Position numbers and translations under genes: made by a program. A stretch of 64,000 bases of DNA from a phage: sequence record PX994957.1. One strand, written 5' to 3'. The notes under the pieces were generated by a model. That model ran no database searches and was not told the origin of the DNA. It saw only the letters and a list, made by a program, of their open reading frames with translations. Below, piece after piece: positions 5,247 to 54,036 of this stretch. How positions within the stretch are numbered: the first letter of the stretch is position 1; every line of letters begins with the position of its first letter.

Positions 5247-5277
5247 CATAAAGTCCTCATGTTATGTCAGTAAGACT

Positions 5278-5307
5278 ACTATAACACAACACGAGGGACT
5301 TGTAAAC
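5278..5307 (-). promoter_or_regulatory. sigma70-type early promoter upstream of alc
   Basis: minus strand GTTTAC-N17-TTATAGT. Confidence 0.5.
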
Positions 5308-8104: not shown

Positions 8105-8155
8105 AAATTTTCCGCTTAGTTAATAGTTGGTGACTCGTCCGTGAGTCAAATTATA

Positions 8156-10420
8156 TCATAATTTACAGGATGAACAATCTTCAGCTTTTGGAGTTTCTAT
8201 TTCATAATCATCAGTACCAGAACCGTCACGGGTATTATGATAATAGAAATTTTTTCCGCCAAAATACCAGAAATACAAAAGGTCATCAATCATTATTGAC
8301 ATTGGAACCTTGCCTTTAGGGAAGATTTGGGGGTCATAGTATGTATTCGCCGAAGCTGATTGACAAACCCATTTCAGCATAATAGCTACCTGCGTAAGAT
8401 AAGGTTTATTACCTTTCTTAGCTAATTTCCATGTATAATCATAAAGGTCTATGTTATGCTCAATATTGGGCACGACTTGATTAAAGGAGCCCTCTTTTGA
8501 TTCTTTAACAGAGACTGGTCCACGTGGAGGCTCGATACCGTTTGTACTGTTAGAAACTTGGGAAGATGACTCACATGGCATAAGTGCTGATAATGTGCTA
8601 TTACGGATGCCAAAGAGCTTAAGGTCTTCCCGCAGCGACGACCAGTCACAAACGTATTTTGGAGCTGCGATTTGGTCAATCTTTTTATTGTACCAGTCGA
8701 TAGGTAATTCGCCTCGAGACCAACGAGTGTCTGAATAATATTCACAAGGTCCTTTTTCTTTGGCGAGTTTAATGGATGCTTTAATGAGTCCATACTGTAA
8801 TCTCTCAAATAGTTCATGTGTTAAATCGTTAGCATCTTCATAAGAAGCAAAGTTACTTGCCAACCAAGCTGCATAGTTAGTAACACCTACACCGAGGTTA
8901 CGACGCTTTTTAGCTTTTTCTGCTTCAGGAACTGGATATCCTTGGTAATCCAAAAGATTATCAAGAGCACGAACCTGGACTTCTGCCAATTCATTAATTT
9001 TATCTTGGTCTTGCCAGTCAAAATTATCCAGCACGAATGCAGAGAGAGTACACAATCCAATTTCAGCATCAGGACTATTCACATCATTTGTTGGAATAGC
9101 AATTTCACAGCACAAGTTACTCTGACGAATAGGTGCCTTTTCACGAATAAACGGAGTATAGTTATTCGTATTATCAATGAACTGTACATAAATCCTTGCT
9201 GTTCCTGAGCGTTCAGTCATGAGCAATTCAAATAGTTCACGAGCTTTAATACGCTTTTTACGAATATTAGGGTCTTTTTCTGCGGCTTCATACAATTCAC
9301 GGAAACGGTCTTGGTCTTTAAAATAAGAATAATAAAGCTCTCCGCCCATTTCATGGGGACTGAACAAAGTAATGTAATCGTTCTTTCCAAAACGTTCCAT
9401 CATCAAATCATTCAGTTGAACACCATAATCCATATGACGAATGCGGTTTTCTTCTACGCCTTTGTTATTTTTCAAAACAAGAAGATTTTCAACTTCCAAA
9501 TGCCAAATAGGATAATAAGCAGTAGCAGCGCCGCCACGAATTCCACCCTGTGAGCATGATTTAACAGCAGTCTGAAAATGTTTCCAAAAAGGAATAACAC
9601 CAGTATGGCGTACTTCACCCATGCCAATCTTAGAACCTTCAGCACGAATCATACCAACGTTAATACCAATTCCAGCGCGTTTAGAGATATATTCAACAAT
9701 TGAAGCGGAAGCCTTATTGATAGACTTTAATGAATCACCTGCCTCAATAACAACGCATGAACTAAACTGCCGGGTTGGAGTACGGCAACCAGCCATAATA
9801 GGAGTTGGCAATGAAATCTGTCGAGTAGATACTGCTTCATAAAAACGGATAACGTGTTTTAATCTATCAACAGGTTCATCTTGATGCAATGCCATTCCAA
9901 TAGTCATAAATGCAAACTGTGGAGTTTCATAAATTTGACCAGTGGTTTTATCTTTAACTAGATATTTTTCTTTTAATTGCATCGCCCCGGAATAAGTAAA
10001 TTCCATATCCCGCTCGTGCTTAATTTTTGATTCTAAAAATGTAATTTCTTCTGCAGAATATTTTGACAACAATTCAGGGTCGTATTTACCTTCATTTACA
10101 CAGTAAGAAATATGGTCAATAAATGAACGTGGTTCATACTGCCCATAAACATGCTTACGAAGAGCAAACATTAAACAGCGTGCAGCTACATATTGATAAT
10201 CAGGTTCTTCAACCGAAATAGAATTCGCAGCGGCCTTAATGACAATAGTCTGAATATCATCAGTTGTCATTCCATCACGGAGATAAGATTTAATATTTTC
10301 ATATAATTCATAAGGATCTACTGATGTTCCTTCAGCTGCCCAAGATAAAACTTTAATAATTTTTTGTGGGTCAAAGCTCTGAGAAACACCACTACTTTTG
10401 ATAACATTAATTAATTGCAT
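8156..10420 (-). CDS. nrdA: ribonucleotide reductase large subunit (aerobic)
   Basis: 754 aa; C-terminal CSSCKL tail; T4 synteny. Confidence 0.93.
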   Translation of the reverse strand: MQLINVIKSSGVSQSFDPQKIIKVLSWAAEGTSVDPYELYENIKSYLRDGMTTDDIQTIVIKAAANSISVEEPDYQYVAARCLMFALRKHVYGQYEPRSFIDHISYCVNEGKYDPELLSKYSAEEITFLESKIKHERDMEFTYSGAMQLKEKYLVKDKTTGQIYETPQFAFMTIGMALHQDEPVDRLKHVIRFYEAVSTRQISLPTPIMAGCRTPTRQFSSCVVIEAGDSLKSINKASASIVEYISKRAGIGINVGMIRAEGSKIGMGEVRHTGVIPFWKHFQTAVKSCSQGGIRGGAATAYYPIWHLEVENLLVLKNNKGVEENRIRHMDYGVQLNDLMMERFGKNDYITLFSPHEMGGELYYSYFKDQDRFRELYEAAEKDPNIRKKRIKARELFELLMTERSGTARIYVQFIDNTNNYTPFIREKAPIRQSNLCCEIAIPTNDVNSPDAEIGLCTLSAFVLDNFDWQDQDKINELAEVQVRALDNLLDYQGYPVPEAEKAKKRRNLGVGVTNYAAWLASNFASYEDANDLTHELFERLQYGLIKASIKLAKEKGPCEYYSDTRWSRGELPIDWYNKKIDQIAAPKYVCDWSSLREDLKLFGIRNSTLSALMPCESSSQVSNSTNGIEPPRGPVSVKESKEGSFNQVVPNIEHNIDLYDYTWKLAKKGNKPYLTQVAIMLKWVCQSASANTYYDPQIFPKGKVPMSIMIDDLLYFWYFGGKNFYYHNTRDGSGTDDYEIETPKAEDCSSCKL

Positions 10421-10737
10421 AAGTCCTCAACTTGAAAATCGTCTTTAAACAATCGGTTAACTATATGAGCTATTATATCACCATGACACGGCTTTGGTTT
10501 ACATGTGCATCCTAGCCTCATTCCACGTAAAGGCTCTAAATGTGCTTTAGTTATTTCTCCGGATTTAATTCGACGTATAAAATCTTTTTTGAATAATTCA
10601 ATGGCAGCCTCCCGGCTGCCAGCATCTTTACCGACGTAATTTCCCCAAAATGTACCACGGTGAATATTAACATCAAAGTCGGATTTATATTTATTCACTA
10701 CTCGGCATATACGGCCTGCGCGGTTGTAAGTGTTCAT
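10411..10737 (-). CDS. hypothetical protein, 108 aa (nrdA.1 position)
   Basis: ORF track. Confidence 0.55.
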
Positions 10738-10966
10738 ATTGTTCTTCCGTTAAAACAGTAATATCGTAGTAACAGTCAGAAGAAGTTTTAACTGTGGAAA
10801 TTTTATTATCAAAATACTCACGAGTCATTTTATGAGTATAATATTTTTTGCCATAAATGATAATAGGCTGATTTGGTCCTGGAACTTCTAACTCACTTGG
10901 ATTAGGAAGTGTAAAAAGAACTACACCAGAAGTATCTTTAAATCGTAAAATCATATATCCTCGCAA
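10691..10966 (-). CDS. hypothetical protein, 91 aa (nrdA.2 position)
   Basis: ORF track. Confidence 0.5.
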
Positions 10967-40330: not shown

Positions 40331-40360
40331 ATTATACCACATCCTTGTGGTAAAGTAAAC
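40331..40360 (-). promoter_or_regulatory. sigma70-type early promoter with extended -10 (TGTGGTATAAT) and CCACA-N4-TGTGG palindrome
   Basis: minus strand GTTTAC-N17-TATAAT. Confidence 0.65.
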
Positions 40361-42180
40361 TACTGGCTCATCCATTCTTTACGAAGGTCAGCATTATCTC
40401 CCATGAGCATTTCAAAAAGCTCTTTCCAGTTCTCAGGAAGTTTAACAACATCATATACTGGATTTTGAATCATCTCACGATATTCAGATTTTTCCAAAGA
40501 GCCAAGTCCCTTAATATAACGGATGCTATGTTTAGGTAGAGCATCTTTAGCACTCTCATATTCAGCGACTGTATAAAACCATTCTTGTTTTTTACCGACC
40601 TGAGCGATGATTACAGGAGTTTTGACAAAGCGAATTCGTCCTTGCTCAAACAATTCTGGCCAATTACTAAAAAATCCGAGCAGAGAAGGATAAATGCTTC
40701 CTAGACCATCATGGTCAGCATCGGTCATAATAGCAATATTATGATAATTCAAGTTTTCAGCTTTTTCACCAAGAACTAATCCAGTGATTGCGCAAATATC
40801 AAACAGTTCTTTGTTTTTAAGCATATCAGCATATGACATACCCCAACTGTTGAGAACTTTACCACGCAATGGATAACCACCGTGAAGTTCTTTATCACGA
40901 ACATCAATAAGATATCCGATAGCAGAATCACCCTCAGTCAAGAAAAGAGTAGTGTCAGCATCTTTACCACAAAGATTCGCTTTGATATGTTTATGAACCT
41001 TAGCTTTAGAAGCCTTTTTAGCTGCTTTAGTTTCTGCCGCTTTTTCTGCTGCCAATTTACGGGCCAAGGCAGCTTCAATAATTGGCATCAAAATAGCTTC
41101 ATTATTTAGAATAGCGCGTGAAATCTTTTTAGCATCAAGTTGAATATGACTACGAATTTCGCCAAATGGAGAAGTCAAACGCTCTTTAGTCTGAGAATCA
41201 AATCGCATGTTTTTCATATCACGAACAAACATAACGATAGTCAAACATTCTTTAACACGTGCTTTAGTCACATCAATTTTGAACTTACGTTTGATTTGTG
41301 GAATAAGGTCTTCACAAATATCATCCATAACACAGTCAATGTGATGGCCACCATTCTTAGTGTGAATGTTATTCACATAAGTTAATTGACGAAATCCATC
41401 CGGTGAACGACCAACAGCAATAGAACAATTTTCTTGTTCTTGAACAATAGCATGCTCATCATATTGGCGTGCATATTTCTTAAAATTACCCTGAACCTTT
41501 TTACCATTAAAGGTAAATTGAATATCAGGATAAACGACAGCAAGTGTCTGGAGACGATCCAGTGTAATGTCAAGATAAACCTGAGACAGCTCATTAGTTT
41601 CAAATGACATAAAATCAGGAATGAAAGTAACACGAGTTCCTTTCCATTTTCCAGGAATAGTTTCCCAGGATTTATTTTCCATACCATTTGAACAACGAAC
41701 TACAATATTATTTTGACCATCGCCAGTTTCACCGACAAACATCACAGAAAAAATGTTTGTCAAACTAGAACCAACACCATTCATACCACCGGTGACGCGT
41801 TCTTTATCATCACCGAAGTTACCACCTGCTTTTGGAATAGTCCAGGCAGCAACAGGACCAGGAATTTCTTCACCGGTAGGTGTTTTAACCATCGCTTGTG
41901 GAATACCGCGACCGTTATCTTCAACTGTTACCTGATTATTTTTAATGGTAACATTAATTTTATTCGCGAATTTAAACTTAGTACGAATACCTTCATCTAC
42001 TGAGTTATCGATAATTTCATCAATAAGCTTAACAAGACCAGGTACATACTGAACACTTTCCCATTTACCAAACAGAAAGCGCTCATGCATTTCATTAGCA
42101 GAAGAGCCAATATACATGCCGCTACGCTTTTTGATATGTTCAATATCGCTCAGAATTTTAATTTCATTCTTAATCATCAC
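40360..42180 (-). CDS. 39: DNA topoisomerase II large subunit (GyrB-like ATPase plus Toprim), single uninterrupted gene
   Basis: 606 aa continuous; covers what T4 splits into genes 39 and 60. Confidence 0.93.
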   Translation of the reverse strand: MMIKNEIKILSDIEHIKKRSGMYIGSSANEMHERFLFGKWESVQYVPGLVKLIDEIIDNSVDEGIRTKFKFANKINVTIKNNQVTVEDNGRGIPQAMVKTPTGEEIPGPVAAWTIPKAGGNFGDDKERVTGGMNGVGSSLTNIFSVMFVGETGDGQNNIVVRCSNGMENKSWETIPGKWKGTRVTFIPDFMSFETNELSQVYLDITLDRLQTLAVVYPDIQFTFNGKKVQGNFKKYARQYDEHAIVQEQENCSIAVGRSPDGFRQLTYVNNIHTKNGGHHIDCVMDDICEDLIPQIKRKFKIDVTKARVKECLTIVMFVRDMKNMRFDSQTKERLTSPFGEIRSHIQLDAKKISRAILNNEAILMPIIEAALARKLAAEKAAETKAAKKASKAKVHKHIKANLCGKDADTTLFLTEGDSAIGYLIDVRDKELHGGYPLRGKVLNSWGMSYADMLKNKELFDICAITGLVLGEKAENLNYHNIAIMTDADHDGLGSIYPSLLGFFSNWPELFEQGRIRFVKTPVIIAQVGKKQEWFYTVAEYESAKDALPKHSIRYIKGLGSLEKSEYREMIQNPVYDVVKLPENWKELFEMLMGDNADLRKEWMSQ

Positions 42181-42231
42181 TTATCCTCGTTTGGTTTCGG
42201 GAATATTATACTCCGGCAATCATAAAGCTAA

Positions 42232-42243
42232 AGGCCCGAAGGC
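42232..42243 (-). terminator. stem-loop GGCC-CGAA-GGCC with flanking U-runs
   Basis: hairpin read in sequence. Confidence 0.45.
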
Positions 42244-42246
42244 CTT

Positions 42247-42516
42247 TTATTTAAAACGAATAGTTGAATCCTTAAAGAACAACCCAGAACATACTGTTCC
42301 TTCTACTTTCTGCCCAGTAGGTCCAATAGCACGAAATCCAGTATGTTGGAAATCATTTTCAGAGCAACCGAACCAATTATATCCAGTGATTTCAATATTC
42401 GTAAAACCACTCGATGATAAAATTTTAGTTGCATTATCAGCATCAGTACATCCTACTAAAGATACTGCTAATACTAATGCTGCAATAGAACGATTAATAT
42501 ATTTCATAGTTTTCAC
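42247..42516 (-). CDS. predicted lipoprotein, 89 aa
   Basis: signal peptide with LVGC lipobox. Confidence 0.55.
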   Translation of the reverse strand: MKTMKYINRSIAALVLAVSLVGCTDADNATKILSSSGFTNIEITGYNWFGCSENDFQHTGFRAIGPTGQKVEGTVCSGLFFKDSTIRFK

Positions 42517-42893
42517 TTAAATTTAATGGCTTGAAGGAGACTAATAATTCTCAAACGGCTTCTTTCATCTTTAACTGTAAAAGAAAGAGGGTCGCCAGAT
42601 TTCATAGTGATAGTGCATTCAAAATCAAAATCTTCAGGAACTTCTTCGAAGAAGTCAAATTCTTCATCATAAATTAGAACTTCACTCCGCAGACTGTGAA
42701 GAATTTTTCCAGCATTTCTGCTAGTTGCTGTACTAATCATTGTAACATTATGACCTTTCATATCTTCAACGATAAATTCGCTTGTAGATATTACGGCATT
42801 AATAGAACCATTCCTATTACTAGCAGAAAGTAGATATTTCTTTTCTTCACCTTCGCGAACACGATATTTCTTACCGATTTTAAACATAATCAC
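42513..42893 (-). CDS. hypothetical protein, 126 aa (GTG or nearby ATG start)
   Basis: ORF track. Confidence 0.5.
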   Translation of the reverse strand: MIMFKIGKKYRVREGEEKKYLLSASNRNGSINAVISTSEFIVEDMKGHNVTMISTATSRNAGKILHSLRSEVLIYDEEFDFFEEVPEDFDFECTITMKSGDPLSFTVKDERSRLRIISLLQAIKFK

Positions 42894-43066
42894 CCTTTAA
42901 GTAAATCGTAAAAACCGCCATTCACATGCTTAGGAGCAGAAGGCCGACGAGTAGACAAACGATGACATTTAGGGCAAACATCATTTTCTCGTTCAGAAAT
43001 CTTTTTAATTTTTTCATATTCATGCCCGCAATCTTCGGATTGGCATTTATAATCATACATTGGCAT
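42890..43066 (-). CDS. zinc-ribbon mini-protein, 58 aa (CxxC ... CxxC)
   Basis: own translation MPMYDYKCQSEDCGHEYEKIKKISERENDVCPKCHRL... Confidence 0.5.
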   Translation of the reverse strand: MPMYDYKCQSEDCGHEYEKIKKISERENDVCPKCHRLSTRRPSAPKHVNGGFYDLLKG

Positions 43067-43068
43067 AA

Positions 43069-43494
43069 TTATTCCTTAAAGTGTGCTTTCAACATCTGAT
43101 ACAAAGACCATGCCTGTTCATTATTTTCAATAGTAACTTTCATGACCGGGAATTCTGTGAAATCTTCTATTTGTTCTTGCTCTTTCTCTTCCTGCTCTTG
43201 CTCTTCAGCTGCCTGGTATGGATTTTCCACTTCATCAAAGAACACAGCTTCACTCGTTGAAAGCCAGATAAAATCTTCATCCAAAATATCTTTACCAGAA
43301 GATAACGCCAATTTTCCACTAGATGTCACAAGTTTAGTAGGACGACCAAGATAGTCAATATCTGTAACTCTAAAAGGTTCCATACCAAGACGTCGTGCAT
43401 AAATTCCGTTTTCAGTATGGTCCTTGATAAAATCTTCTTGAGCTTGTTTATTTTTAAATTGATACCATTTATTAACTTCAAATTTAATAGCCAT
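43069..43494 (-). CDS. hypothetical acidic protein, 141 aa (size and position compatible with T4 goF)
   Basis: ORF track frame with start at MAIKFEV. Confidence 0.5.
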
Positions 43495-43709
43495 TAATAA
43501 GTTTCCTTCCAATAAGTTGTACCATCTTCAGTAATTTCGCGAAACACACCATAAATTGGTTGTTTATCACCAACTTTTTCGTACACATAAACCGAAGTCA
43601 AGTGAGTAAACTTATTAGTATGTTCCTTTTGAACTACTACAAGATTTGGATCAAATAATACATCTTCAAATTCGTCATTAGTGCAATTCTGAACAATTTT
43701 ACGTTTCAT
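43494..43709 (-). CDS. hypothetical protein, 71 aa
   Basis: ORF track. Confidence 0.5.
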
Positions 43710-43722
43710 TACAATTTCCTCA

Positions 43723-44004
43723 TTAATTGAACAGTGGAGCGATGCGTTTCAGAAGAGTAGCAGCACCTTTAGCGAATTTTACATCATGAAAAACAGTTTC
43801 TTCTTCCGTTACAACACGAGCTTTAATGTTTTCACAATCCCAATTTTTGCGAACAATCTTCAAAAGCTGCAGTAAATCTTTACATTCAGCAATATCGATA
43901 ACACATCCACGAGAATCTTCCATTATTGCACGATAACCGTAAGCCATACCATAATCGTTGAAAGATTGCTCGATGATAATTAAGTTTTCCATTTTATTCT
44001 CCAA
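43723..44004 (-). CDS. hypothetical protein, 93 aa
   Basis: ORF track; promoter-like leader box upstream. Confidence 0.55.
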   Translation of the reverse strand: MENKMENLIIIEQSFNDYGMAYGYRAIMEDSRGCVIDIAECKDLLQLLKIVRKNWDCENIKARVVTEEETVFHDVKFAKGAATLLKRIAPLFN

Positions 44005-44088
44005 GTTATTTTCTGTATCAGTAGTTGATATTGATATAGTACCATAATCAACTACTGATGTATATAGTTTTATGAAAAAATTTAAACT

Positions 44089-44586
44089 TTATGCACAGCG
44101 AGCTTTGCTATAGTGTTTAATCCAGCTTTCAGGAATGACTTTGTATGTTCCTAAAAATACCGCGTTGTACAGCTTAACACCGTCTTCTACCCACTGATCG
44201 GTAATGTATGCGCACATAGCACGAGTACGGTGTTTTTGAACAACCCCTTCCTCATCTTCAGTAAATTCGAATTCATAAGGAGCAACGAACTTAATAGCCT
44301 GACCGAGTTTCCACTTAAAGTATACACCTACATGCGAAGTATCAATCGTTTCAATTCCTTTAGCAGGAACAGCTTTCAAAAACGCAGATTCAAGAAATTT
44401 CGCACGAACATAGCCAAACTGAGGTTTAGACTTTCCATCTTTAGGAATGATACGCACTTTTACTTCAGAATCTTCATCTTTAACGCCGTGTTTAAGCTGA
44501 ATGCTTACAATTTCGACCAATTTTCCTGCTGCTTTAGAACGGGATTTATCAGATACACGAGCAATTTCACCAATATTAATAATCAT
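44089..44586 (-). CDS. hypothetical protein, 165 aa; shares a C-terminal module with ORF 44663..45202
   Basis: ORF track; shared motif ITDQWVEDGVKLYNAVF. Confidence 0.6.
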   Translation of the reverse strand: MIINIGEIARVSDKSRSKAAGKLVEIVSIQLKHGVKDEDSEVKVRIIPKDGKSKPQFGYVRAKFLESAFLKAVPAKGIETIDTSHVGVYFKWKLGQAIKFVAPYEFEFTEDEEGVVQKHRTRAMCAYITDQWVEDGVKLYNAVFLGTYKVIPESWIKHYSKARCA

Positions 44587-44630
44587 AGTTATCTCTCACT
44601 TGTTAAAAAGATTTTATACTCCACAGGACC

Positions 44631-44660
44631 ATTATACTCTGGTCCCAAGAGTTTGTAAAC
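44631..44660 (-). promoter_or_regulatory. sigma70-type early promoter with GGACC palindrome around -10
   Basis: minus strand GTTTAC-N18-TATAAT. Confidence 0.55.
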
Positions 44661-44662
44661 TA

Positions 44663-45202
44663 TTAATTCAAAATAGCTACCACTGCACTACGAGGTACTA
44701 CGCTAAAATCACCTGCATGAACAACGTTCAGAAGTTCAACACCATCTTCAATCCATTGGTCTGTTACCCAACCACAGACCGAAATAAATGGAGTCTTGAT
44801 AGCTACCGCACGAGTTAAAAGGTCAGTAGGATCGCATTCTTGAAAGAGGATGAACTCTGCTTCAAAGACTATAGTTTTAATTACTTCATCATTATCTAAG
44901 CGATGTGCTCGAATCACGTAAGCTTTATTTTTATCATACCAGTTACTTTTTGAAAAGCTTTTAACCACAAACTCACCTTCACCAAAAACACTAGTCAATG
45001 CTTTATAACCCAAATTTAGTTCAGTTGTTTTAATTTCAGTTTCAACTAGTTTGTAGGTTTTGCCGATTTCAATAGCGGTAGTCATAGTAGGTTCCTTAAT
45101 TTCCAGTGGTTTAACAGGGCATACATAAGTGCTTACAACATCAAAATCAATCAGTTTAGCTACCGGATTTGGTATGTATTCAGGATTATAATTAAATTTC
45201 AT
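44663..45202 (-). CDS. hypothetical protein, 179 aa; paralogue of ORF 44089..44586 in the C-terminal region
   Basis: ORF track; shared motif VTDQWIEDGVELLNVV. Confidence 0.6.
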   Translation of the reverse strand: MKFNYNPEYIPNPVAKLIDFDVVSTYVCPVKPLEIKEPTMTTAIEIGKTYKLVETEIKTTELNLGYKALTSVFGEGEFVVKSFSKSNWYDKNKAYVIRAHRLDNDEVIKTIVFEAEFILFQECDPTDLLTRAVAIKTPFISVCGWVTDQWIEDGVELLNVVHAGDFSVVPRSAVVAILN

Positions 45203-45204
45203 AA

Positions 45205-45705
45205 TTATCTCATTTCAATAAAATCTACAAGTTCAGCATGGGATTTACGGAACATTACTTGATGCCCACCAATAATAACTTGGTCATCTGGTACTTCGTA
45301 TACAGCAAGATAAAATCCTTTCGAAGATAATTCTTCACGCTCTTCTCGTGTGAACCATCTCATCATATCATATTCGCTAGCAAAAGCAAAATGATAAAGA
45401 GCTATAAACCATCCGGGAATATGATATTCTACTCCAACATAATCTTTCTTGAACTTAGTATTAATTACGATATTAGCATTTTTAACTAATAGTTTATCTT
45501 CGTGTGGTAAAGGAATTCTTTTATTATTATCGCTATGATGCATAAAATTAGGTCTGTCATAACCTACGTGTAATAGCCACTCTTCGCTCCATGAATCTAT
45601 TATACTCCTGTACGGCGTTATTTGAACACAAAGATTTCGACGTATTGTTATAGCATCTTCATAATCAAGAATACTAAACGATGATTCAACACGATAAATT
45701 TTCAT
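45205..45705 (-). CDS. hypothetical protein, about 166 aa (start MKIYRVESS with GAGGA RBS)
   Basis: ORF track frame; the upstream ATG would lie 5' of the promoter-predicted transcript start. Confidence 0.5.
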   Translation of the reverse strand: MKIYRVESSFSILDYEDAITIRRNLCVQITPYRSIIDSWSEEWLLHVGYDRPNFMHHSDNNKRIPLPHEDKLLVKNANIVINTKFKKDYVGVEYHIPGWFIALYHFAFASEYDMMRWFTREEREELSSKGFYLAVYEVPDDQVIIGGHQVMFRKSHAELVDFIEMR

Positions 45706-45730
45706 TTTATTATCCTCAGTAGCTATGGTG

Positions 45731-45762
45731 TTATAATACCACAACTAACCGAGGAAGTAAAC
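45731..45762 (-). promoter_or_regulatory. sigma70-type early promoter
   Basis: minus strand GTTTAC-N18-TATTATAAC. Confidence 0.5.
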
Positions 45763-45768
45763 AACTTT

Positions 45769-46452
45769 TTATCGTTTTGTTGGAAGAGATAGAGGATCGC
45801 ATTCTTCCTCTGATGGAGCGTCTTCAAGACCCATAGCATACCGCAAAGCATACTTCATCATCAGGATGTCTTTCGCACAGTCATGAATAGAATCATGTGC
45901 AACGAATCCATCTAAAGTTCCCTTTGGAAGAGGACAAGTGGTCATATCACGAACAAGTAGAAGTGCTTCAATTCTGGTACGAATATCACGCTGATTCCAG
46001 AATTTACACGGTTCTAACTTAAATGTATCAAGCTCATTCTCGGAAACGCCATTAAGACGTTGAATATCACGAATGAGATCGACTAAAATTGGAAAATCAA
46101 ACGACATTCCACGGCACCAACCCTGAGATTTCCAAGGATCGATATTATGCGCATTGATGTAATCATTGAATTTTGCAATACCATCAATAGTGCTTACATC
46201 TTCATCTGACGGTGCAATATTTTTTCGAGCTTCAGGGGATTGATTCTTCCACCATTCGATAGTGCTTTTAGTAAAAAGACGATGTCCTTTTTGGCTTTTT
46301 AAATCAAATTTGATTTTAATGCCACGTGAAACTAATTCATCGAATGTTTCAACGACTTCTGGATTAGGGTCAAAAGCAATTACAGCTAAATCAATAACAG
46401 CTGCCTTTTCGCCGCTTCCCATTGTTTCAAAATCTATAATAAAATCAAACAT
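45769..46452 (-). CDS. dexA: exonuclease A (DEDDh 3'-5' exonuclease)
   Basis: 227 aa; N-terminal DFETMG exonuclease motif. Confidence 0.85.
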   Translation of the reverse strand: MFDFIIDFETMGSGEKAAVIDLAVIAFDPNPEVVETFDELVSRGIKIKFDLKSQKGHRLFTKSTIEWWKNQSPEARKNIAPSDEDVSTIDGIAKFNDYINAHNIDPWKSQGWCRGMSFDFPILVDLIRDIQRLNGVSENELDTFKLEPCKFWNQRDIRTRIEALLLVRDMTTCPLPKGTLDGFVAHDSIHDCAKDILMMKYALRYAMGLEDAPSEEECDPLSLPTKR

Positions 46453-46694
46453 TAAATTTTCCTTGCTAAATCGCGAATTTGACCTACAGTATAGTCTTGA
46501 ATATAAACTTTATTAATAGGCTCATCAATAAATTTTGCAATAGATTCAATGTCTTTTTGTATCTCTTCAAGACTGTATACTATCTTTGAAGCTTTTTCGC
46601 GAATAGTAATATTTTCAGGACCCGGATTTTCTTCAATGACAGCTTTAACATTTGTCATAAGAGATTTAAACTGACACCAACTTAATTCAATCAT
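46452..46694 (-). CDS. hypothetical protein, 80 aa
   Basis: ORF track. Confidence 0.5.
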   Translation of the reverse strand: MIELSWCQFKSLMTNVKAVIEENPGPENITIREKASKIVYSLEEIQKDIESIAKFIDEPINKVYIQDYTVGQIRDLARKI

Positions 46695-46947
46695 TAATAA
46701 TCGCCTTATAAAGATAGCTAATTTCGCCTAAAATATAATCATTGATTGTAACAGTTTTCACTTCACCACAAAAGAATTCTAACGCAATTAAATCTCGTTC
46801 AATTTCTTCTAATTGAAGCCTCAACTTACTAGATTCTATTTTTACAGTTTCACGATTTTTGCTATAAGCAATTTCATAAATTTCGCTTACTTTATCTTGA
46901 AGAAGATAAAACTGATCTTTAGTTATTTCCACGAATAGCTTCCTCAA
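46687..46947 (-). CDS. hypothetical protein, 86 aa
   Basis: ORF track. Confidence 0.5.
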   Translation of the reverse strand: MRKLFVEITKDQFYLLQDKVSEIYEIAYSKNRETVKIESSKLRLQLEEIERDLIALEFFCGEVKTVTINDYILGEISYLYKAIIND

Positions 46948-47179
46948 ATTTAATTAGTAATTTACAGACACTTTCATCTAGTGTAATTACCGTATCTGTA
47001 TTACTGTGATATGATTGTTTTTCAATTCGTTTAATTGCTAATATAGTATCACTTATAAGATAAAGCTTATGAAGGAGCTCAGCTCCTGTTACCATAACAT
47101 TAAGATTATCTTGCTTATTAGTATGCTTCCTTATACCATCTATTAGACGATTTAAATATTTTGAATTGATGTTAATCAT
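46919..47179 (-). CDS. hypothetical protein, 86 aa
   Basis: ORF track. Confidence 0.5.
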   Translation of the reverse strand: MININSKYLNRLIDGIRKHTNKQDNLNVMVTGAELLHKLYLISDTILAIKRIEKQSYHSNTDTVITLDESVCKLLIKFEEAIRGNN

Positions 47180-47185
47180 ATATCC

Positions 47186-48505
47186 TCACACATAAAATAC
47201 GTCATAACGACCACGGGTAACACCAACATAAAGAAGCTGCTGAGCTAGTTCAGCATCTGCATAATGAATACAAGGCGTATAAATGAAAGCACGGTCTACA
47301 GACATACCCTGAGCTTTATGGAATGTTGATGCAGGAAGCGCTTTCACTTTACTAAACTGTGATTTAGCATCCCAAAAATCACTCCACGGAGCTTTTCCGC
47401 CTTTATTCCAATTTTTATAAGTTTCTGCCGTTTTACCTAAAAACAGGTTAAACTTATATAGCTCTTCATCAGATGAAATTATTTTAATCTTTTCACGATA
47501 ATATTCATCATCGCCGTAAGTTTCTACTGTTAAATCCCAATGACGAATTAAGTATTCTCCAGGAACACCACGAGCTTTAACAAACGTTGATGTATACTCT
47601 GCTTCTATAATACGAACTAATTGTCCATTATTAAAAATAATTTCTGATACAGGCTTTCCATCAATTTTATATGTTTTAATTAATGGTTCCTGCATTACAA
47701 TAATTTCACCGACAATAAAATCTTTATCAGTTTCAAAAATCTTTTTACGAATAATGCTATTTAACTTATCAACAGATTTATTCGTAAATGCCATTACGCG
47801 ATTTTCAAACAAATCATCTAAAGATTTGACGATTGAAAAATAATTTACCATAAAATCGCGTAAAGCGGTATCACCAGTAAATCCACGTACTCCATGCCCG
47901 TCAACAACTTTATCATAAATCCACTTACCGTTACGAACATCAGTAGCTACATCAATAATAGGAGCATTACTGCGTTTAACTTCAGTAAGTTCACATTGAT
48001 AAAAATCTTTGTGTGTAAAGAATGGACTGATATAAGCAGTATTTTCTCCTGGATCAACAGGTCTAATTTGCTTATTATCACCTATTCCAATTATTGTGCA
48101 CCACGGCGGAATAGTTGAAAGCAGAATTTTAAATAGCTTTCTATCATACATTGACACTTCGTCGCAGATTAATACCCTGCATTTAGCTAAATCTGGTACT
48201 TCCTTCTGTTCAAAAAGAACGTTTTCTTCATACGTAACTGGGTTAATTTTAAGAATACTGTGAATAGTACTCGCTTCTTTCCCCGACAGTTTTGAAAGAA
48301 TCTTTTTAGCTGCATGAGTAGGAGCTGCCAAAATGATACCAGTTTCACCCGTAGATATTAAAGCTTCAATGATGAACTTAGTAAGAGTAGTCTTACCAGT
48401 ACCAGCAGGTCCATTAATAGTTACATGATGTTTCTTTTCTTTAATAGCCCTCATAACGATGTTAAAGGCATTTTTCTGGCCTTCTGTCAAATCATCAAAT
48501 GTCAT
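47186..48505 (-). CDS. dda: Dda DNA helicase (SF1B)
   Basis: 439 aa; Walker A GPAGTGKT; T4 synteny. Confidence 0.93.
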   Translation of the reverse strand: MTFDDLTEGQKNAFNIVMRAIKEKKHHVTINGPAGTGKTTLTKFIIEALISTGETGIILAAPTHAAKKILSKLSGKEASTIHSILKINPVTYEENVLFEQKEVPDLAKCRVLICDEVSMYDRKLFKILLSTIPPWCTIIGIGDNKQIRPVDPGENTAYISPFFTHKDFYQCELTEVKRSNAPIIDVATDVRNGKWIYDKVVDGHGVRGFTGDTALRDFMVNYFSIVKSLDDLFENRVMAFTNKSVDKLNSIIRKKIFETDKDFIVGEIIVMQEPLIKTYKIDGKPVSEIIFNNGQLVRIIEAEYTSTFVKARGVPGEYLIRHWDLTVETYGDDEYYREKIKIISSDEELYKFNLFLGKTAETYKNWNKGGKAPWSDFWDAKSQFSKVKALPASTFHKAQGMSVDRAFIYTPCIHYADAELAQQLLYVGVTRGRYDVFYV

Positions 48506-48813
48506 CGGAAAGTCCCTGCAATTGGAATACTAACAATACGCCCAGTATCTAGAATTCGTTGATATAATCTTTGTGTATCTACATCAGGCTTAACATGTTT
48601 AACTTCTATTTTATTAAACCAAAACTTGCGTGGAGTCTCAACTAGTCTTGGAATTCCCATACCTAAAGCTAGTTTATATTGGTCTTTGAGAGTAGTAAAA
48701 ACTCTATCAGCAATCTCTCTTTCAAAAAATACAGCAGGACGATGTTCATCAAGTGGAACTGGCGCCGTAAATCCGTCTTTGTCTCGGTAAACTATCGCAT
48801 ATACATAAACCAT
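48502..48813 (-). CDS. hypothetical protein, 103 aa (dda.1 position)
   Basis: ORF track. Confidence 0.55.
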   Translation of the reverse strand: MVYVYAIVYRDKDGFTAPVPLDEHRPAVFFEREIADRVFTTLKDQYKLALGMGIPRLVETPRKFWFNKIEVKHVKPDVDTQRLYQRILDTGRIVSIPIAGTFR

Positions 48814-48814
48814 A

Positions 48815-49561
48815 TTATCCTCGGATAAGTTTAAAAATTGAACAATTTAGTGGGTATCCTCTTTTCAGTTTAAGTTTATCAATAAAAGACAAGTTTTGAT
48901 ACCGCTCTACACCTTGAATAATTTTATCACACATATCATATTGCATTTCTGCTTCTGACAACTTTTTCACAATTTTCCAATCCGAGCCTTTAAGAAGAAC
49001 GTTCAGTTTAACAACTTCAGCGCCTTCTGCTATGCGAGAACCATCAATACGAGCTTTAAGTGCTATAATCCTTAGCTTAATGTCAGAGGTCTGTTTTGAT
49101 TTAGAAAGCTGAGAAATGTGTTCAATTCGATTTTCACGCTTTTTCTGTATAGCTTTAATTTGATTATAAGTCTTTTTGATTTTAGCCCATTTCTTTTCAT
49201 CTAAATTTAGTTTATGAACTTTTTTCGCAGATGAACGACCAATTCGCAAAGCAAATAAATCCCGTTTTTCAATCAACTCTTCTAAAGTATAATCAGAACG
49301 AAATGTATTATACTTTTTCTTTACTGCAATAACGTTCCCTTTAATGTATCCAATGTTATTATCAAAACGTTCTAATGATAATTTCTCTCCTTCAATACGA
49401 TTATCAAAAGGTTCTCCTGAATAGGCACAAACTTTTTGATCTAAAATGTTCTTAATGTAATTGAAGTCTAAGTTAAAATCTTTAGAACGTCTTTTTGCAG
49501 ATGCCTGAGTATGCTCTAAACGACGTTTAATTTTACGAATTTGGTTATTAGACAGTTTCAT
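48815..49561 (-). CDS. srd: basic 248-aa protein at the T4 srd position (Srd-like); assignment is positional
   Basis: size and synteny between dda.1 and modA; early promoter upstream. Confidence 0.45.
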   Translation of the reverse strand: MKLSNNQIRKIKRRLEHTQASAKRRSKDFNLDFNYIKNILDQKVCAYSGEPFDNRIEGEKLSLERFDNNIGYIKGNVIAVKKKYNTFRSDYTLEELIEKRDLFALRIGRSSAKKVHKLNLDEKKWAKIKKTYNQIKAIQKKRENRIEHISQLSKSKQTSDIKLRIIALKARIDGSRIAEGAEVVKLNVLLKGSDWKIVKKLSEAEMQYDMCDKIIQGVERYQNLSFIDKLKLKRGYPLNCSIFKLIRG

Positions 49562-49590
49562 ATTTTTCTCACGGACGGTTAACTTACTTA

Positions 49591-49621
49591 TACTATATCA
49601 TTTTTACTTCAGCTTGTAAAC
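49591..49621 (-). promoter_or_regulatory. sigma70-type early promoter
   Basis: minus strand GTTTAC-N18-TATAGT. Confidence 0.5.
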
Positions 49622-49677
49622 AACTTTATGTAAAATGCTTTAAAACTTTCGTGGTATAATGAATCTAAGTCCTTCCA

Positions 49678-50280
49678 TTATAGATTAAATCCTTCAAAAT
49701 CAAGAGTATAGATAGTGTATGTTGAATACTTTTTATACTCATATCTATCTGCAATTCTAAATACACTTCCAGCTGGTATCATTACTTCTTGTTCATCTGA
49801 AACTAATTCCATATTACGATAACGATGGCTATCCGGAAACTTAAAGTTTGGATTGTATTCTTTACAGCGTAGAGCTTTTATAGCATACTCCTGGAAATTG
49901 AATACCATAGGAGCTTTGAATTCAAAAATAACCTGTGTGTTATACTCTAAACCGGAAGCAAAATGTAGAGCTATATTTTTATCATATGAAGCTGATACTA
50001 CTTTATCAAATGTAATAATATCAATTCCTTGATTTAACACTTGCTTAGTCTCGACTGGAACACCTCTCCAAAGAGGTTTATCGTTTGGTTCCAAACGAGA
50101 TTTGATTATTTCATTTAACCAAGTATGGTCATCTGGTTTGTTGGTAATACAATGAATTAAAAGTTCAATTTCAGATAAATTAAACCCTTCAGAAAGTAAT
50201 TCTTCACGAATAGAAGCACGCACCGATGCATCCATTGATTTTATTTTAAAATCTTTTAGTTGCATTACTGAGTATTTCAT
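49678..50280 (-). CDS. modA: ADP-ribosyltransferase ModA
   Basis: 200 aa; T4 synteny; paralogue of the adjacent ModB. Confidence 0.8.
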   Translation of the reverse strand: MKYSVMQLKDFKIKSMDASVRASIREELLSEGFNLSEIELLIHCITNKPDDHTWLNEIIKSRLEPNDKPLWRGVPVETKQVLNQGIDIITFDKVVSASYDKNIALHFASGLEYNTQVIFEFKAPMVFNFQEYAIKALRCKEYNPNFKFPDSHRYRNMELVSDEQEVMIPAGSVFRIADRYEYKKYSTYTIYTLDFEGFNL

Positions 50281-50900
50281 TCAACTACCTCAATATCATA
50301 AACTTTAAATGTTCCAAATGAATCGTGTAATTTTTCTTTTGAAATAGAAGTTATTTTATACTTTCCAATTGGAATCATCCATTCTTGTTCACGCACAATC
50401 ATCATTAAGTTATCAGTTCTTTCTGAATCTAACCCGTCAGTATCTTCATACGTGTACTTAAACTCAGTATTAGGAGAAGAAAGTATAATATCGCTGATAT
50501 GGTCAGAATAATTAAAAGCTTTATCAGTTTTTAAGCGAAAAATTATTTCAGTGAAATATTCAGCATAAGAAAAAGAACACGCTGTATGCAAACTAGTAGT
50601 AAATGAATCTACCCTGTTCGTTGAAAACACTTCTCCAACTTGTAAATCTTTAATGAGTTCTTTTGTCGATTTTGATATACCACGATATAATTGATAAGGC
50701 GATTTAATTAAATGCTTTTTAATGATTTTATTCAACTGTCTGTGAAGAGCTTCATTCTTTTTGGCTTCCATACATTGCCAAAGAACAGACTGCTCAAAGT
50801 CAGTAAATTTTTCACAGACCTTTTTATACATATCATATTGAAAATCAACGCTTTCAGCTTTTATAGATAACTGTTCAACATCTGCAAGATTAATAATCAT
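50277..50900 (-). CDS. modB: ADP-ribosyltransferase ModB
   Basis: 207 aa; T4 synteny. Confidence 0.8.
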   Translation of the reverse strand: MIINLADVEQLSIKAESVDFQYDMYKKVCEKFTDFEQSVLWQCMEAKKNEALHRQLNKIIKKHLIKSPYQLYRGISKSTKELIKDLQVGEVFSTNRVDSFTTSLHTACSFSYAEYFTEIIFRLKTDKAFNYSDHISDIILSSPNTEFKYTYEDTDGLDSERTDNLMMIVREQEWMIPIGKYKITSISKEKLHDSFGTFKVYDIEVVE

Positions 50901-50927
50901 GATAGCCTCCGTATACTTCAGAAGCTA

Positions 50928-50956
50928 TCATATCATCGTTAGAAAGGAAAGTAAAC
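50928..50956 (-). promoter_or_regulatory. sigma70-type early promoter upstream of modB
   Basis: minus strand GTTTAC-N18-TATGAT. Confidence 0.5.
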
Positions 50957-50967
50957 AACTTTTTGAA

Positions 50968-51150
50968 TTATTTTGCCCAGGGAGCCCAAGGCGGAGGGTC
51001 AAGATGGTATGAAGCTAGTTCTTCTAGAAGAGCATCTGGAGCTTCAATTCCATAATTCTGTAATACTATACGGTATTCTTTCTTATAATCACTAGAATCA
51101 TTCTGGTTATTCGTAGAATGATTATCTTCTAACATCTCAAATAAATCCAT
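50968..51150 (-). CDS. hypothetical protein, 60 aa
   Basis: ORF track. Confidence 0.45.
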   Translation of the reverse strand: MDLFEMLEDNHSTNNQNDSSDYKKEYRIVLQNYGIEAPDALLEELASYHLDPPPWAPWAK

Positions 51151-51158
51151 ATTAATTC

Positions 51159-51629
51159 CTAGCGATAAAAACCAAATTGACGATTAGCTTCAACAATCTT
51201 TCTTTCTTCTTCAGACATTCTCCAGCGTAGTCCAACGTCAAAATGAGCCCAGACCATCTTAACAAATGCATTTATATCTTTAATATCTTCAATAATGAAT
51301 GTTTTACTTTTCGAAGGTTGACTCGCTAATTTAACTTTATCATCTTCAAACAGGTCAAAAAGACCATATTCATGAGCTCTTTTATAGCCTTTAATAGTTA
51401 AAGCTTCAGAAGAAGAAAACGGTGAATCAGTATTCTGCAAAATATCTTCAGTATGCTTTATAATTAGAATAACATTTTCTGGATATTTTCTTTCTTTTAT
51501 ATCTTTAATTAAAAAATCCGGATTTTCTGCTAAAGGAATAATTAACGAGCATTTTTTACCAAGAGTATTTACTGATTTACCTTCTTTAGACATAAATTCT
51601 ATTGAATAATGTTTTGCTACTTCAATCAT
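51159..51629 (-). CDS. hypothetical protein, 156 aa (mrh region)
   Basis: ORF track. Confidence 0.55.
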
Positions 51630-51782
51630 GTGATTTCCTTTTGCCTACTAATGGACCGTCGGGAATTTTGTTTTCCTGGATATATTTCTCATTTTCTTCC
51701 ATCATTTTACTACCGATTTTAAGAAGCAAATCCATTGCTTCATTTGCTTTAGCTTTAGCCTCTTCTAACGTCATATCTTTGT

Positions 51783-51986
51783 TCATGATTTATCACCATA
51801 GATGTCTCTCATCAATTTAAGCGCTGAGCGTTCTAATTTCTTTTCTTTCTCAGCACTAATCATTGATTTCATCCATTCTTCCGATTCGTTCTGCATTTCT
51901 TTATTTGCTTGTTCAACCCAGCCATCATCAATATACATTGAGTTTGGTCGATTAAACCATTCAAATATTTTCTTTAGGACTTTCAT
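51783..51986 (-). CDS. hypothetical protein, 67 aa
   Basis: ORF track. Confidence 0.5.
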
Positions 51987-52467
51987 TCATTTTACCTAAA
52001 ACAATAGTAGGAGCATCGTCAAATTTATGAATTTTTAGCAAATTTGGAGTTAATTTATTCCATAAAGAAGTAATAAAATATGATAGCGCAATTTCTTCCG
52101 CAATTATGAATTTATTTCCCTTATCTCCCTTATCTATTTTCCAGTCATGTACTGAATCATATGAATAGAAGGACAGCGGTTTATTGTTATAAAATGCTTC
52201 ACCAACATCAATATAGTTAGATTTAGTAAATGCTTGAATTGACGTAAATGGAGAATTTTGTACAGTTTCAATAATTCCGATCTTTTTAAGTTTTATTTCA
52301 ACATCTTCTGGAACTGGCATTGAAATAAAATCTTCTACTAGATACATGCTATTGTCATATCTTTTGTCAATCATTACTGCTACAGTAATTGGAACATCCT
52401 TGACAAACGCCATACTAATACTATTAATAAACATTTCAAACAAAATTGCTTCCATAATTTTCCTCAA
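51961..52467 (-). CDS. hypothetical protein, 168 aa
   Basis: ORF track. Confidence 0.55.
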
Positions 52468-52796
52468 TCACAAGATGTAGATGAACAACTAGAATCACAA
52501 GAACTTCCGCATGAATCACTTGCCCATACGTGAACAGGAACATTTGTATCATATGAAGAATTAGAACTTTTAACTTCGTTAGAAGATGTAGGTACTGACC
52601 ATCGCCAAGGATTTTTATAATATTCTTGGGCTTCTTCATAAGTCATAGTAACTGCTTCTACTGTTCCATCTCCCATATAAACATACTCAACTACAGTTAA
52701 AGGAAGGTAGTCATTTGAAATAGGAACTACACCTTCCCCAGGAGTCGTAGAGAAAAAATCCGTAAAGAAACTTTTAAACCAATTAAAGATAAACAC
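52464..52796 (-). CDS. hypothetical protein, 110 aa, with Cys/Ser-rich C-terminal tail
   Basis: ORF track; tail [18 protein letters not shown]. Confidence 0.5.
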
Positions 52797-53002
52797 TACA
52801 AAAAACCTCTCTTGAATTCAACTTGCTTCTCGCCATAATCATATCGAATCTCTGCATTAAATTCGACAGAACCATCTGCGTACATCATAAATGAATGCAC
52901 AACAACTTCTGTGGACCATGGCTGCAGTTCATATTTCTTCATTACATGTCGTGAAATGATAATATCTAAATCTTCATTTGGTTTAATCCAACGATTTAAC
53001 AT
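52796..53002 (-). CDS. hypothetical protein, 68 aa
   Basis: ORF track; early promoter upstream. Confidence 0.5.
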   Translation of the reverse strand: MLNRWIKPNEDLDIIISRHVMKKYELQPWSTEVVVHSFMMYADGSVEFNAEIRYDYGEKQVEFKRGFL

Positions 53003-53028
53003 AGTGCTCTCCTCTATAAGATAATTTT

Positions 53029-53057
53029 ATTATACCATACTCATTTTGGAAAGTAAA
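53029..53057 (-). promoter_or_regulatory. sigma70-type early promoter (TGGTATAAT extended -10)
   Basis: minus strand GTTTAC-N18-TATAAT. Confidence 0.55.
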
Positions 53058-53068
53058 CCGGTAAAATG

Positions 53069-53092
53069 AAAAAGGACTCCCTAGGGAGTCCT
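53069..53092 (-). terminator. rho-independent terminator downstream of soc
   Basis: perfect palindrome AGGACUCCC-UA-GGGAGUCCU followed by U-run on minus strand. Confidence 0.75.
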
Positions 53093-53099
53093 TGAATTA

Positions 53100-53336
53100 T
53101 TAACCACCTATTTCTGTAGGCGTAAACATTGCAGCATTCTTAGTTTTCCAAGTTGCTGCATCGGAAACTACATCAGAATAAGCTGCTTTTTCTGACGGAA
53201 AGATTTGATAATGAGAATCTGCAATACGGTGTTCATTTGAATATACATCAAATGCTACAGAAACTTCCATACCTTTAACTTCTTTGCCTTCACCTGCTGG
53301 ATGAGTAAAGGTCTTGATGTTAACGAAACCACCCAT
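53100..53336 (-). CDS. soc: small outer capsid protein Soc
   Basis: 78 aa; VNIKTF ... SVAF ... HYQ.FPSEKAAYS pattern matches recalled T4 Soc. Confidence 0.85.
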   Translation of the reverse strand: MGGFVNIKTFTHPAGEGKEVKGMEVSVAFDVYSNEHRIADSHYQIFPSEKAAYSDVVSDAATWKTKNAAMFTPTEIGG

Positions 53337-53367
53337 AATAAACTCCTTTATTGTTTAATTACAGGTG

Positions 53368-53375
53368 TATTTATA
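53368..53375 (-). promoter_or_regulatory. late promoter TATAAATA upstream of soc
   Basis: exact TATAAATA on minus strand 32 nt upstream of the soc ATG. Confidence 0.65.
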
Positions 53376-53517
53376 ACTTACAATTTAGCGGCTTTCCAGA
53401 GTTGTTCAATAATCTCTTGGTCTATTTCTTTAGTTATTTCATTACGTAATAAAGCAGTAAGGGCTTTCGCCCTTTTCTTATTCAACTTTTTGAGTTGACG
53501 TTTATTTAAACAAGCCA

Positions 53518-54036
53518 TTAATAACCTCGGTCTTGACGTGCGAAATTTTCAGCATTTTTCAGGTAATAAAGTTTAAAGATTTCTTCTGCTGTAAGACCAA
53601 GACCTTGGAACATGTTCAGAACGAAATGGAGAATATCAATCATTTCAAACTTAATTTCCAGTTGGTCTTGTGGAGACAAATCAGTAATCAGAGTTTCACG
53701 GCGTTCACCATGCTGCGACTTCCAAGGCTTCCATACAGCAGATGCATCTTTTTCACCATTGCTCATACCACCAAGAGAAGTCAGAAGTTCACGGAATTCA
53801 TCATCAATATAATCTTTCTGATTACGCAACCAATCAACAACTTCACCGGCAGTAGCCAAGTCATCAGGATGACGATTATATTCAGGTTTATCTTTAGCTA
53901 AACGAATTTGCAGAGATTTCTGCATGTCAAGCATTACCTGCAGCGGGTCTTTTTCATCACCGAGAATATCCCAATATTCATTTTGAGCTTTATCAGCGCC
54001 TTCGATCAGTTGACTACATTCGTTGAAATGTGGCAT
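53518..54036 (-). CDS. 56: dCTPase/dUTPase gp56 (MazG-like pyrophosphatase)
   Basis: 172 aa; T4 synteny. Confidence 0.88.
   Translation of the reverse strand: MPHFNECSQLIEGADKAQNEYWDILGDEKDPLQVMLDMQKSLQIRLAKDKPEYNRHPDDLATAGEVVDWLRNQKDYIDDEFRELLTSLGGMSNGEKDASAVWKPWKSQHGERRETLITDLSPQDQLEIKFEMIDILHFVLNMFQGLGLTAEEIFKLYYLKNAENFARQDRGY

Follow-up and report, generated by a model that had tools for sequence, protein, structure and literature searches.

A gene 39.2 ortholog encoding a 58-residue FmdB-family zinc-ribbon protein in a T4-like phage

The 39.2 locus and its gene order

The window, by which we mean the whole 64,000-nucleotide stretch of phage DNA analysed here (record PX994957.1), carries on its minus strand a short gene lying between goF and a 124-aa open reading frame (ORF), with an AAGGA stretch resembling a Shine-Dalgarno (SD) sequence ahead of its start codon (Table 1). 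The original prediction, made by eye, had placed a mini-protein of 58 aa at 42890-43066, and both these coordinates and the quoted sequence were borne out; the frame runs on the minus strand, which the prediction had left unspecified, and falls below the 60-aa default minimum of the ORF lister. The same prediction described the frame as tightly packed between its neighbours, with overlapping stop and start codons. The packing is indeed tight, but the overlap did not hold up: with the annotated starts, the gene is separated from its neighbour by 2 nt on each side. At the upstream junction, the goF stop codon TAA (43069-43071) is followed by TT and then by the 39.2 ATG at 43066 (coding strand, ...AAG GAA TAA tt ATG CCA...), and this AAGGAATAATTATG junction is also found in T4. 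At the downstream junction, the TGA of 39.2 is followed by TT, after which the downstream gene begins with its ATG at 42887 (coding strand, ...AAA GGG TGA tt ATG TTT...). The RB51 annotation likewise has 2-nt spacing at these junctions and does not use the GTG start. A stop/start overlap (GTGA) arises only when the downstream gene is started from an alternative codon, the GTG at 42893, which was the choice of the mechanical ORF lister.

Table 1. Features of the 39.2 locus, in window coordinates
Feature	Coordinates	Strand	Description and basis
Gene 39.2 ortholog, CDS	42890..43066	minus	58 codons from the ATG start, plus TGA stop (42890-42892); translation MPMYDYKCQSEDCGHEYEKIKKISERENDVCPKCHRLSTRRPSAPKHVNGGFYDLLKG
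Upstream neighbour, goF	43069..43494	minus	141 aa from ATG; annotated goF in RB51 and T4; matches to PHROG 622 and goF PHROGs
Downstream neighbour, 124-aa ORF (RB32ORF005c / RB69ORF005c type)	42513..42887	minus	PHROG 622, E = 2e-30
Shine-Dalgarno-like AAGGA	43073..43077	minus	6 nt ahead of the 39.2 ATG, within the final goF codons; sequence read directly
Zinc-ribbon domain, residues 1-41	42944..43066	minus	PF09723, TIGR02605, AF2; N-terminal MPxYxYxC, two metal knuckles
Knuckle 1, C8-x4-C13 (CQSEDC)	43028..43045	minus	Sequence
Knuckle 2, C31-x2-C34 (CPKC)	42965..42976	minus	Sequence; C34 invariant, C31 at least 90% conserved
C-terminal tail, residues 43-58 (SAPKHVNGGFYDLLKG)	42893..42940	minus	Conserved; motif [ST]APxx[VI]xGG[FY]YD

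Over the 1.2 kb surrounding the ORF, two Escherichia phages, vB_EcoM-Sa45lw and vB_EcoM-G157lw, matched the window at 100% identity, and wV7 did so at 99.9%; all three are T4-like phages of the genus Tequatrovirus. RB51 was 96.8% identical, and its syntenic 177-nt CDS carries the annotation gene 39.2. The gene order in RB51 is rIIA, rIIA.1, 39, 39.1, ORF005c, 39.2, goF, cef, motB..., dexA, and the window ORFs follow one another in the same order. The gene keeps its place immediately after goF and ahead of topoisomerase gene 39, all on one strand. T4 and RB69, as well as the distant phages RB49 and RB43, have a homologue a short way upstream of gene 39.

Several observations concern the genes around 39.2. 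The 124-aa downstream ORF is missing from T4, in which 39.1 directly follows 39.2. This ORF and goF both match PHROG 622 (E = 6e-40 for goF), and the 124-aa ORF also matches goF-named PHROGs weakly. The 124-aa ORF may be very distantly related to goF; we do not call the two genes paralogs outright because BLASTP of the 124-aa ORF against goF gave no alignment. Topoisomerase gene 39 (window 40360-42180, minus strand) is one unbroken ORF (about 605 aa), which is also its state in RB51 and RB69. In T4, the topoisomerase gene is split into 39 and 60, with a mobA/60.1 insertion and a 50-nt translational bypass; the gene 60 hop element is therefore missing from the window phage. The N-terminus of Gp39.1 (window 42247-42507, minus strand; 86 aa counted from MKYINRS...) resembles a lipoprotein signal peptide with its lipobox (AVSLVGC), although the protein's matches to NCBIfam lipoprotein signal-region models were all below threshold (LptM, E = 0.076); Gp39.1 also matches PHROG 902, of unknown function. 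The PADLOC defence models matched neither 39.2 nor its two neighbours, and neither the Rfam scan nor the tRNA scan gave any hit across the entire window.

Coding evidence and the state of the frame in relatives

A tblastn search with the 39.2 protein matched 886 phage records, 852 of which cover at least 80% of the query. When ten distinct T-even orthologous sequences were compared, 39 out of 57 variable nucleotide columns fell at codon position 3 of the 39.2 frame, and the other two phases lacked this pattern. Pairwise dN/dS values against orthologs were 0.03-0.10, with dS of 1.52 and dN of 0.128 between the window and T4 39.2, and dS of 0.56 and dN of 0.042 between the window and RB69 39.2. 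The 39.2 frame is a real gene under strong purifying selection.

An ORF of only 58 aa might have arisen by chance in an AT-rich phage genome and carry its cysteine pattern fortuitously, particularly as it is overlapped in other frames by small ORFs of 44 aa (minus strand) and 57 aa (plus strand). The evidence against a chance origin is of several kinds: the low dN/dS values, the concentration of variable columns at position 3 in the 39.2 frame alone, scores above curated HMM cut-offs (see below), the 886 matched phage records and a place upstream of gene 39 that is kept in distant genera. We therefore reject a chance ORF, and the codon-position pattern and conservation likewise led us to reject the overlapping 44-aa and 57-aa frames.

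Interruption of the frame in relatives would have spoken against the original prediction. Instead, the frame was open in relatives except in the older RefSeq record for T4 and in two rare cluster representatives that carry frameshifts, P0005 (Shigella phage vB_SsoM_113) and P0007 (Salmonella phage Manna). These two representatives are 47-aa frameshifted versions of 39.2 that switch to an alternative frame past CP/CL (...NVIVCLLVGLLLLSM), and the tblastn match in Shigella phage vB_SsoM_113 came in two pieces. Either assembly error or rare pseudogenisation could account for the two frameshifts.

In the T4 RefSeq record NC_000866.4, 39.2 is annotated as only 45 aa, a truncation shared by the Swiss-Prot entry Q01434, and 39.1 is annotated as 65 aa rather than 86 aa. 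Comparison of NC_000866.4/AF158101 (5640-5860) with MT984581 (601-820) and HM137666 gave 96.4% identity, corresponding to about 8 differing positions in 221 nt, one of which, an extra T in NC_000866.4 (GCTTCC versus GCTCC), breaks the 39.2 frame. By contrast, resequenced T4 genomes (HM137666 T4T, KJ477684-6, MT984581 and others) encode an intact 58-aa protein, MPLYDYKCQSKDCAKEYEKIKKISERDTDVCPDCHRLAVRLVSAPKHVNGGFYDLLKG. We attribute the truncated 39.2 and the shortened 39.1 of NC_000866.4 to old sequence differences, which are missing from every resequenced T4 genome examined.

The zinc ribbon and the conserved tail

Profile searches against zinc-ribbon families, which had been proposed as a check of the original prediction, placed the protein above both curated cut-offs. 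Residues 1-41 scored 45.7 bits against Pfam PF09723 (Zn_ribbon_8; gathering score 34.4; E = 6.7e-12) and 44.9 bits against NCBIfam TIGR02605 (FmdB-family zinc ribbon; cut-off 31.3; E = 8.7e-12), and the protein also matched PHROG 1076. When 1.84 billion cluster representatives were searched exhaustively with phmmer, 155 relatives were obtained at E <=1e-3; a word-indexed homologue search returned only 7 near-identical proteins. Together with the predicted structure, the conserved ligands and the open frame, the PF09723 and TIGR02605 scores uphold the initial reading of the frame as a zinc-ribbon mini-protein.

The protein has exactly four cysteines, C8/C13 and C31/C34. These had been described as two CxxC pairs, which is correct for the second (CPKC) but not for the first, where the spacing is C-x4-C (CQSEDC). 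The canonical first knuckle of the FmdB family is CxxC, whereas the C-x4-C of the window protein is common to 46 out of 146 small relatives; among the same 146, the first-knuckle spacing was x2 in 81 and x1 in 9. About 6 of the 146, including the RB49 homologue, have a single Cys and a His (C-x2-H) at this knuckle. In the RB49 homologue (5128-5301, minus strand) and in P0014, P0017, P0031 and P0052, the first knuckle reads C-x2-H-G, giving the ligand set C/H/C/C, and RB43-type homologues have CxxC plus CxC.

Loss of the cysteines in relatives would have counted against a zinc ribbon, but they proved to be conserved. In an alignment of 113 sequences, M1 and C34 were invariant and P2, Y4, Y6, C8, C13, C31 and P32 were at least 90% conserved. 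In an alignment of 15 sequences, M1, P2, Y4, Y6, K7 and C8 were invariant, as were C13 and C34, and C31 was shifted by 2 residues solely in C-x4-C variants. Where relatives lose a Cys, another metal ligand takes its place. The four ligands C8, C13, C31 and C34 presumably hold one Zn2+.

Several features link the window protein to FmdB-family zinc ribbons in general, namely the N-terminal MPxYxYxC, the two metal knuckles and the small size. The N-terminal family signature MPxY(E/D)YxC is present, as the protein opens with MPMYDYKC. A Gly-aromatic motif follows the ribbon in both cases, as GGFYD in the window protein and as KGxG[FW]YxTDY in many cellular members. Unlike TIGR02605 (CxxC_CxxC_SSSS) members with their Ser-rich tail, the window protein has no such tail. 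Cellular FmdB-family proteins are not known to have an established function.

The AF2 model built from the 113-sequence alignment had a mean pLDDT of 83.7. Its residues 1-40, with block-mean pLDDT values of 90-93 and strands at 3-8, 16-20, 28-30 and 37-40, are modelled as a confident four-strand zinc ribbon. Residues 41-58 had block-mean values of 63-68, consistent with a flexible tail. A single-sequence AF2 model was poor (pLDDT 58.8) and was superseded by the alignment-based model. In BFVD, T4 Q01434 ranked first, with E = 2.6e-5, an rmsd of 1.3 A and a TM of 0.89 (by target length); its entry is titled 'Uncharacterized 5.1 kDa protein in Gp39-comCA intergenic region', and the next matches were phage proteins labelled FmdB zinc ribbon. 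Foldseek against the PDB gave no significant match (best E = 0.23), the non-significant neighbours all being zinc ribbons (for example, the MCM N-terminal domain, RbpA and RpoP). A sequence search of the PDB gave only a chance-level match to bL31 (E = 0.78).

The window protein shares its entire C-terminal tail with the T4 and RB51 proteins, whereas the RB69 tail has one extra Lys. Members of this small 39.2 subfamily can be recognised by the signature MPxYxYxC ... (K/R)ISER(D/E) ... CPxC ... [ST]APxx[VI]xGG[FY]YD; in the window protein, residues 22-27 (KISERE) and 43-54 (SAPKHVNGGFYD) carry the two subfamily motifs. The motif [ST]APxx[VI]xGG[FY]YD occurs in RB49 and 16 cluster representatives. 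The tail core GG[FY][YF]D was found in 16 out of 139 small cluster representatives, which come from a library that gives no source, so that their phage origin is not established. The homologues of RB49 (MPLYDYSCEEHGQFQKIRKISEREKAECPECGKECKQGLTAPRGINGGYYDKNVRVS) and RB43 (MPTYTYKCTKCEKEFSKMSSIATRDAPKDCECGGEAHRTVDKPQMVKGGFPYV) retain a GG[FY] tail. The conserved tail of the 39.2 proteins may be the partner-contacting element.

Orthology, GroEL and expression

The window gene is the ortholog of T4 gene 39.2 (NwgI) and is syntenic with 39.2 of T4 and RB69. When compared with resequenced T4 Gp39.2 (MT984581, HM137666), the window protein was identical at 47 out of 58 residues (81%), and the 11 differences all lie in residues 3-42. 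T4 Gp39.2 is likewise 58 aa long, occupies the same slot right after goF and upstream of gene 39, and has the same ligand spacing (C-x4-C ... C-x2-C), the KISER motif and the same C-terminal 16 residues; T4 differs in lacking the extra ORF that separates 39.2 from 39.1 in the window phage. Identity to the RB69 homologue was 54 out of 58 aligned residues (93%), and identity to the RB51 homologue was 57 out of 58. RB69 ORF006c (RB69p006) has the same neighbours as the window gene, including the ORF005c-type gene downstream, but is 59 aa long rather than 58 aa, owing to its additional Lys near the C-terminus. The homologues of RB49 (Krischvirus; 57 aa) and RB43 (Pseudotevenvirus; 53 aa) are similar in size and lie just upstream of gene 39, with one small ORF between, although they are far more divergent (related Krischvirus phages showed 44% identity by tblastn) and their ligand arrangements differ from that of the window protein, the second ligand being His in RB49 and the second pair being CxC in RB43.

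The gene is thus already known, being annotated in many T4-like genomes and having a T4 ortholog with a published function, an identity that the original prediction had not recognised. In the 2012 work of Ang and Georgopoulos, gene 39.2 was reportedly first recovered from RB69 in a GroEL selection, its T4, RB43 and RB49 homologues are said to act alike, and overproduction is said to be lethal to the host.

Georgopoulos 2015 (PMC5153855) and Mattenberger et al. 2015 (PMC4396842), both citing Ang & Georgopoulos, Genetics 190:989, 2012, describe the product of T4 39.2 as a 58-aa peptide that subtly modulates GroES/GroEL. According to both, genetic and biochemical data suggest that T4 Gp39.2 moves GroEL toward an 'open' conformation competent to bind the co-chaperonins of host and phage, and phage T4 deleted for 39.2 is fully blocked on specific groEL mutant hosts, whereas its parent is not (PMC5153855; PMC4396842).

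Taking these accounts together with the features of the window protein, we consider it very probable that the gene is a T4 39.2 (NwgI) ortholog encoding a zinc ribbon with a tail, expressed early and acting on host GroEL. We infer the same GroEL-modulating activity for the window allele because of its 81% identity to T4 and 93% identity to RB69 and its identical ligand geometry and tail. In the mechanism we propose, residues 1-41 would form the FmdB-family zinc ribbon and residues 43-58 a flexible tail, and the protein would bias host GroEL toward the open form that binds a co-chaperonin (host GroES or phage gp31). The gp31/GroEL-dependent folding of phage proteins would thus stay efficient on hosts with suboptimal GroEL.

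The zinc ribbon might instead be an adaptor with another primary host target, with the T4 GroEL phenotypes being indirect and arising, for example, from an altered GroEL substrate load. Zinc ribbons are generic modules for protein or nucleic-acid interaction, and a lethal effect of overproduction, as reported, would suit a target other than the chaperonin. However, genetic and biochemical studies, as related in PMC5153855, both indicate a shift in GroEL conformation, and the deletion phenotype described there is confined to specific groEL mutant hosts; these two points argue for a direct effect. We consider a different primary target unlikely.

Names in the databases suggest another function. 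The product name 'FmdB-like transcriptional regulator' is given in PHROG 1076 and in the RefSeq records NC_012635, NC_000866, NC_004928, NC_005066 and NC_007023, and would imply that the ribbon binds DNA or RNA polymerase and alters gene expression. Some weak structural neighbours are ribbons associated with RNA polymerase, namely RbpA (8dy7_G), RpoP (8cro_P) and a YdjO-SigA model (9a6i_A), but all have E >=0.28, and none of the structural matches in the PDB is significant. The name is inherited from the family label, no DNA-binding domain could be recognised in the protein apart from the ribbon, and a literature search on FmdB function found nothing that demonstrates a regulatory activity for zinc ribbons of this family. 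The label also conflicts with the sole experimental data, which concern the T4 protein and identify it as a GroEL modulator. A role as a transcriptional regulator is therefore highly unlikely. Two annotation problems should be fixed, namely this product name and the truncated 39.2 and shortened 39.1 of the T4 RefSeq record. As a discovery, the locus carries little weight, since a small phage protein that tunes host GroEL/GroES has been published for the T4 ortholog; it does provide a calibration point, in that a frame of under 60 aa spotted by eye was a true gene.

A broader proposal concerns the tail. The GroES mobile loop includes ...SAGGIVL..., and the tail SAPKHVNGGFYDLL might contact GroEL in a substrate-like or GroES-mobile-loop-like manner on a zinc-ribbon scaffold. 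The tail of cellular FmdB-family proteins (KGxG[FW]YxTDY) is related, and the whole family could therefore consist of chaperonin modulators. We regard this proposal as speculative and unlikely. A genome scan with the 15-sequence alignment, the 113-sequence alignment being too diverse, supplied 80 cellular loci encoding FmdB relatives, and their flanks (up to 8 kb on each side) were searched with approximate GroEL and GroES queries. With a GroEL query that had no positive control, groEL was found in 0 out of 80 loci. The GroES query found groES in 2 out of 80, these being related loci in which groES stands alone about 2.2 kb away. The synteny result lends no support to a family-wide chaperonin role, yet it is weak evidence, as the queries were approximate and the hypothesis does not require synteny. 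The two loci with groES are on Verrucomicrobiia and Acidiferrales metagenome-assembled genome (MAG) contigs, where about 2.2 kb separate the FmdB-family gene from a groES-like gene downstream of it (locus approximately 8001-10780). No groEL was detected at these loci by tblastn and, in the one inspected, none follows groES. The proximity of the FmdB-family gene and groES in these 2 out of 80 loci is probably coincidental.

Early expression of the window gene, through co-transcription with cef and goF, is the likeliest arrangement. The gene would belong to a leftward polycistronic unit (...cef-goF-39.2-ORF-39.1-39) transcribed from an upstream early promoter, with 39.2 translated from its own SD. 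This transcription unit is put forward as a candidate only, because promoter scans near the gene gave nothing above chance. No minus-strand match to the MotA-box middle-promoter pattern was found from 43066 to 54000, and no terminator-like sites were found in 42000-45300. A weak sigma-70-like site at 43092-43065 was not credited. Sigma-70-like sites were not enriched (8 found versus 12.1 expected); the best of them, located upstream of the motB-like gene, is TTTACA-17-TATAAT (44659-44631, minus strand).
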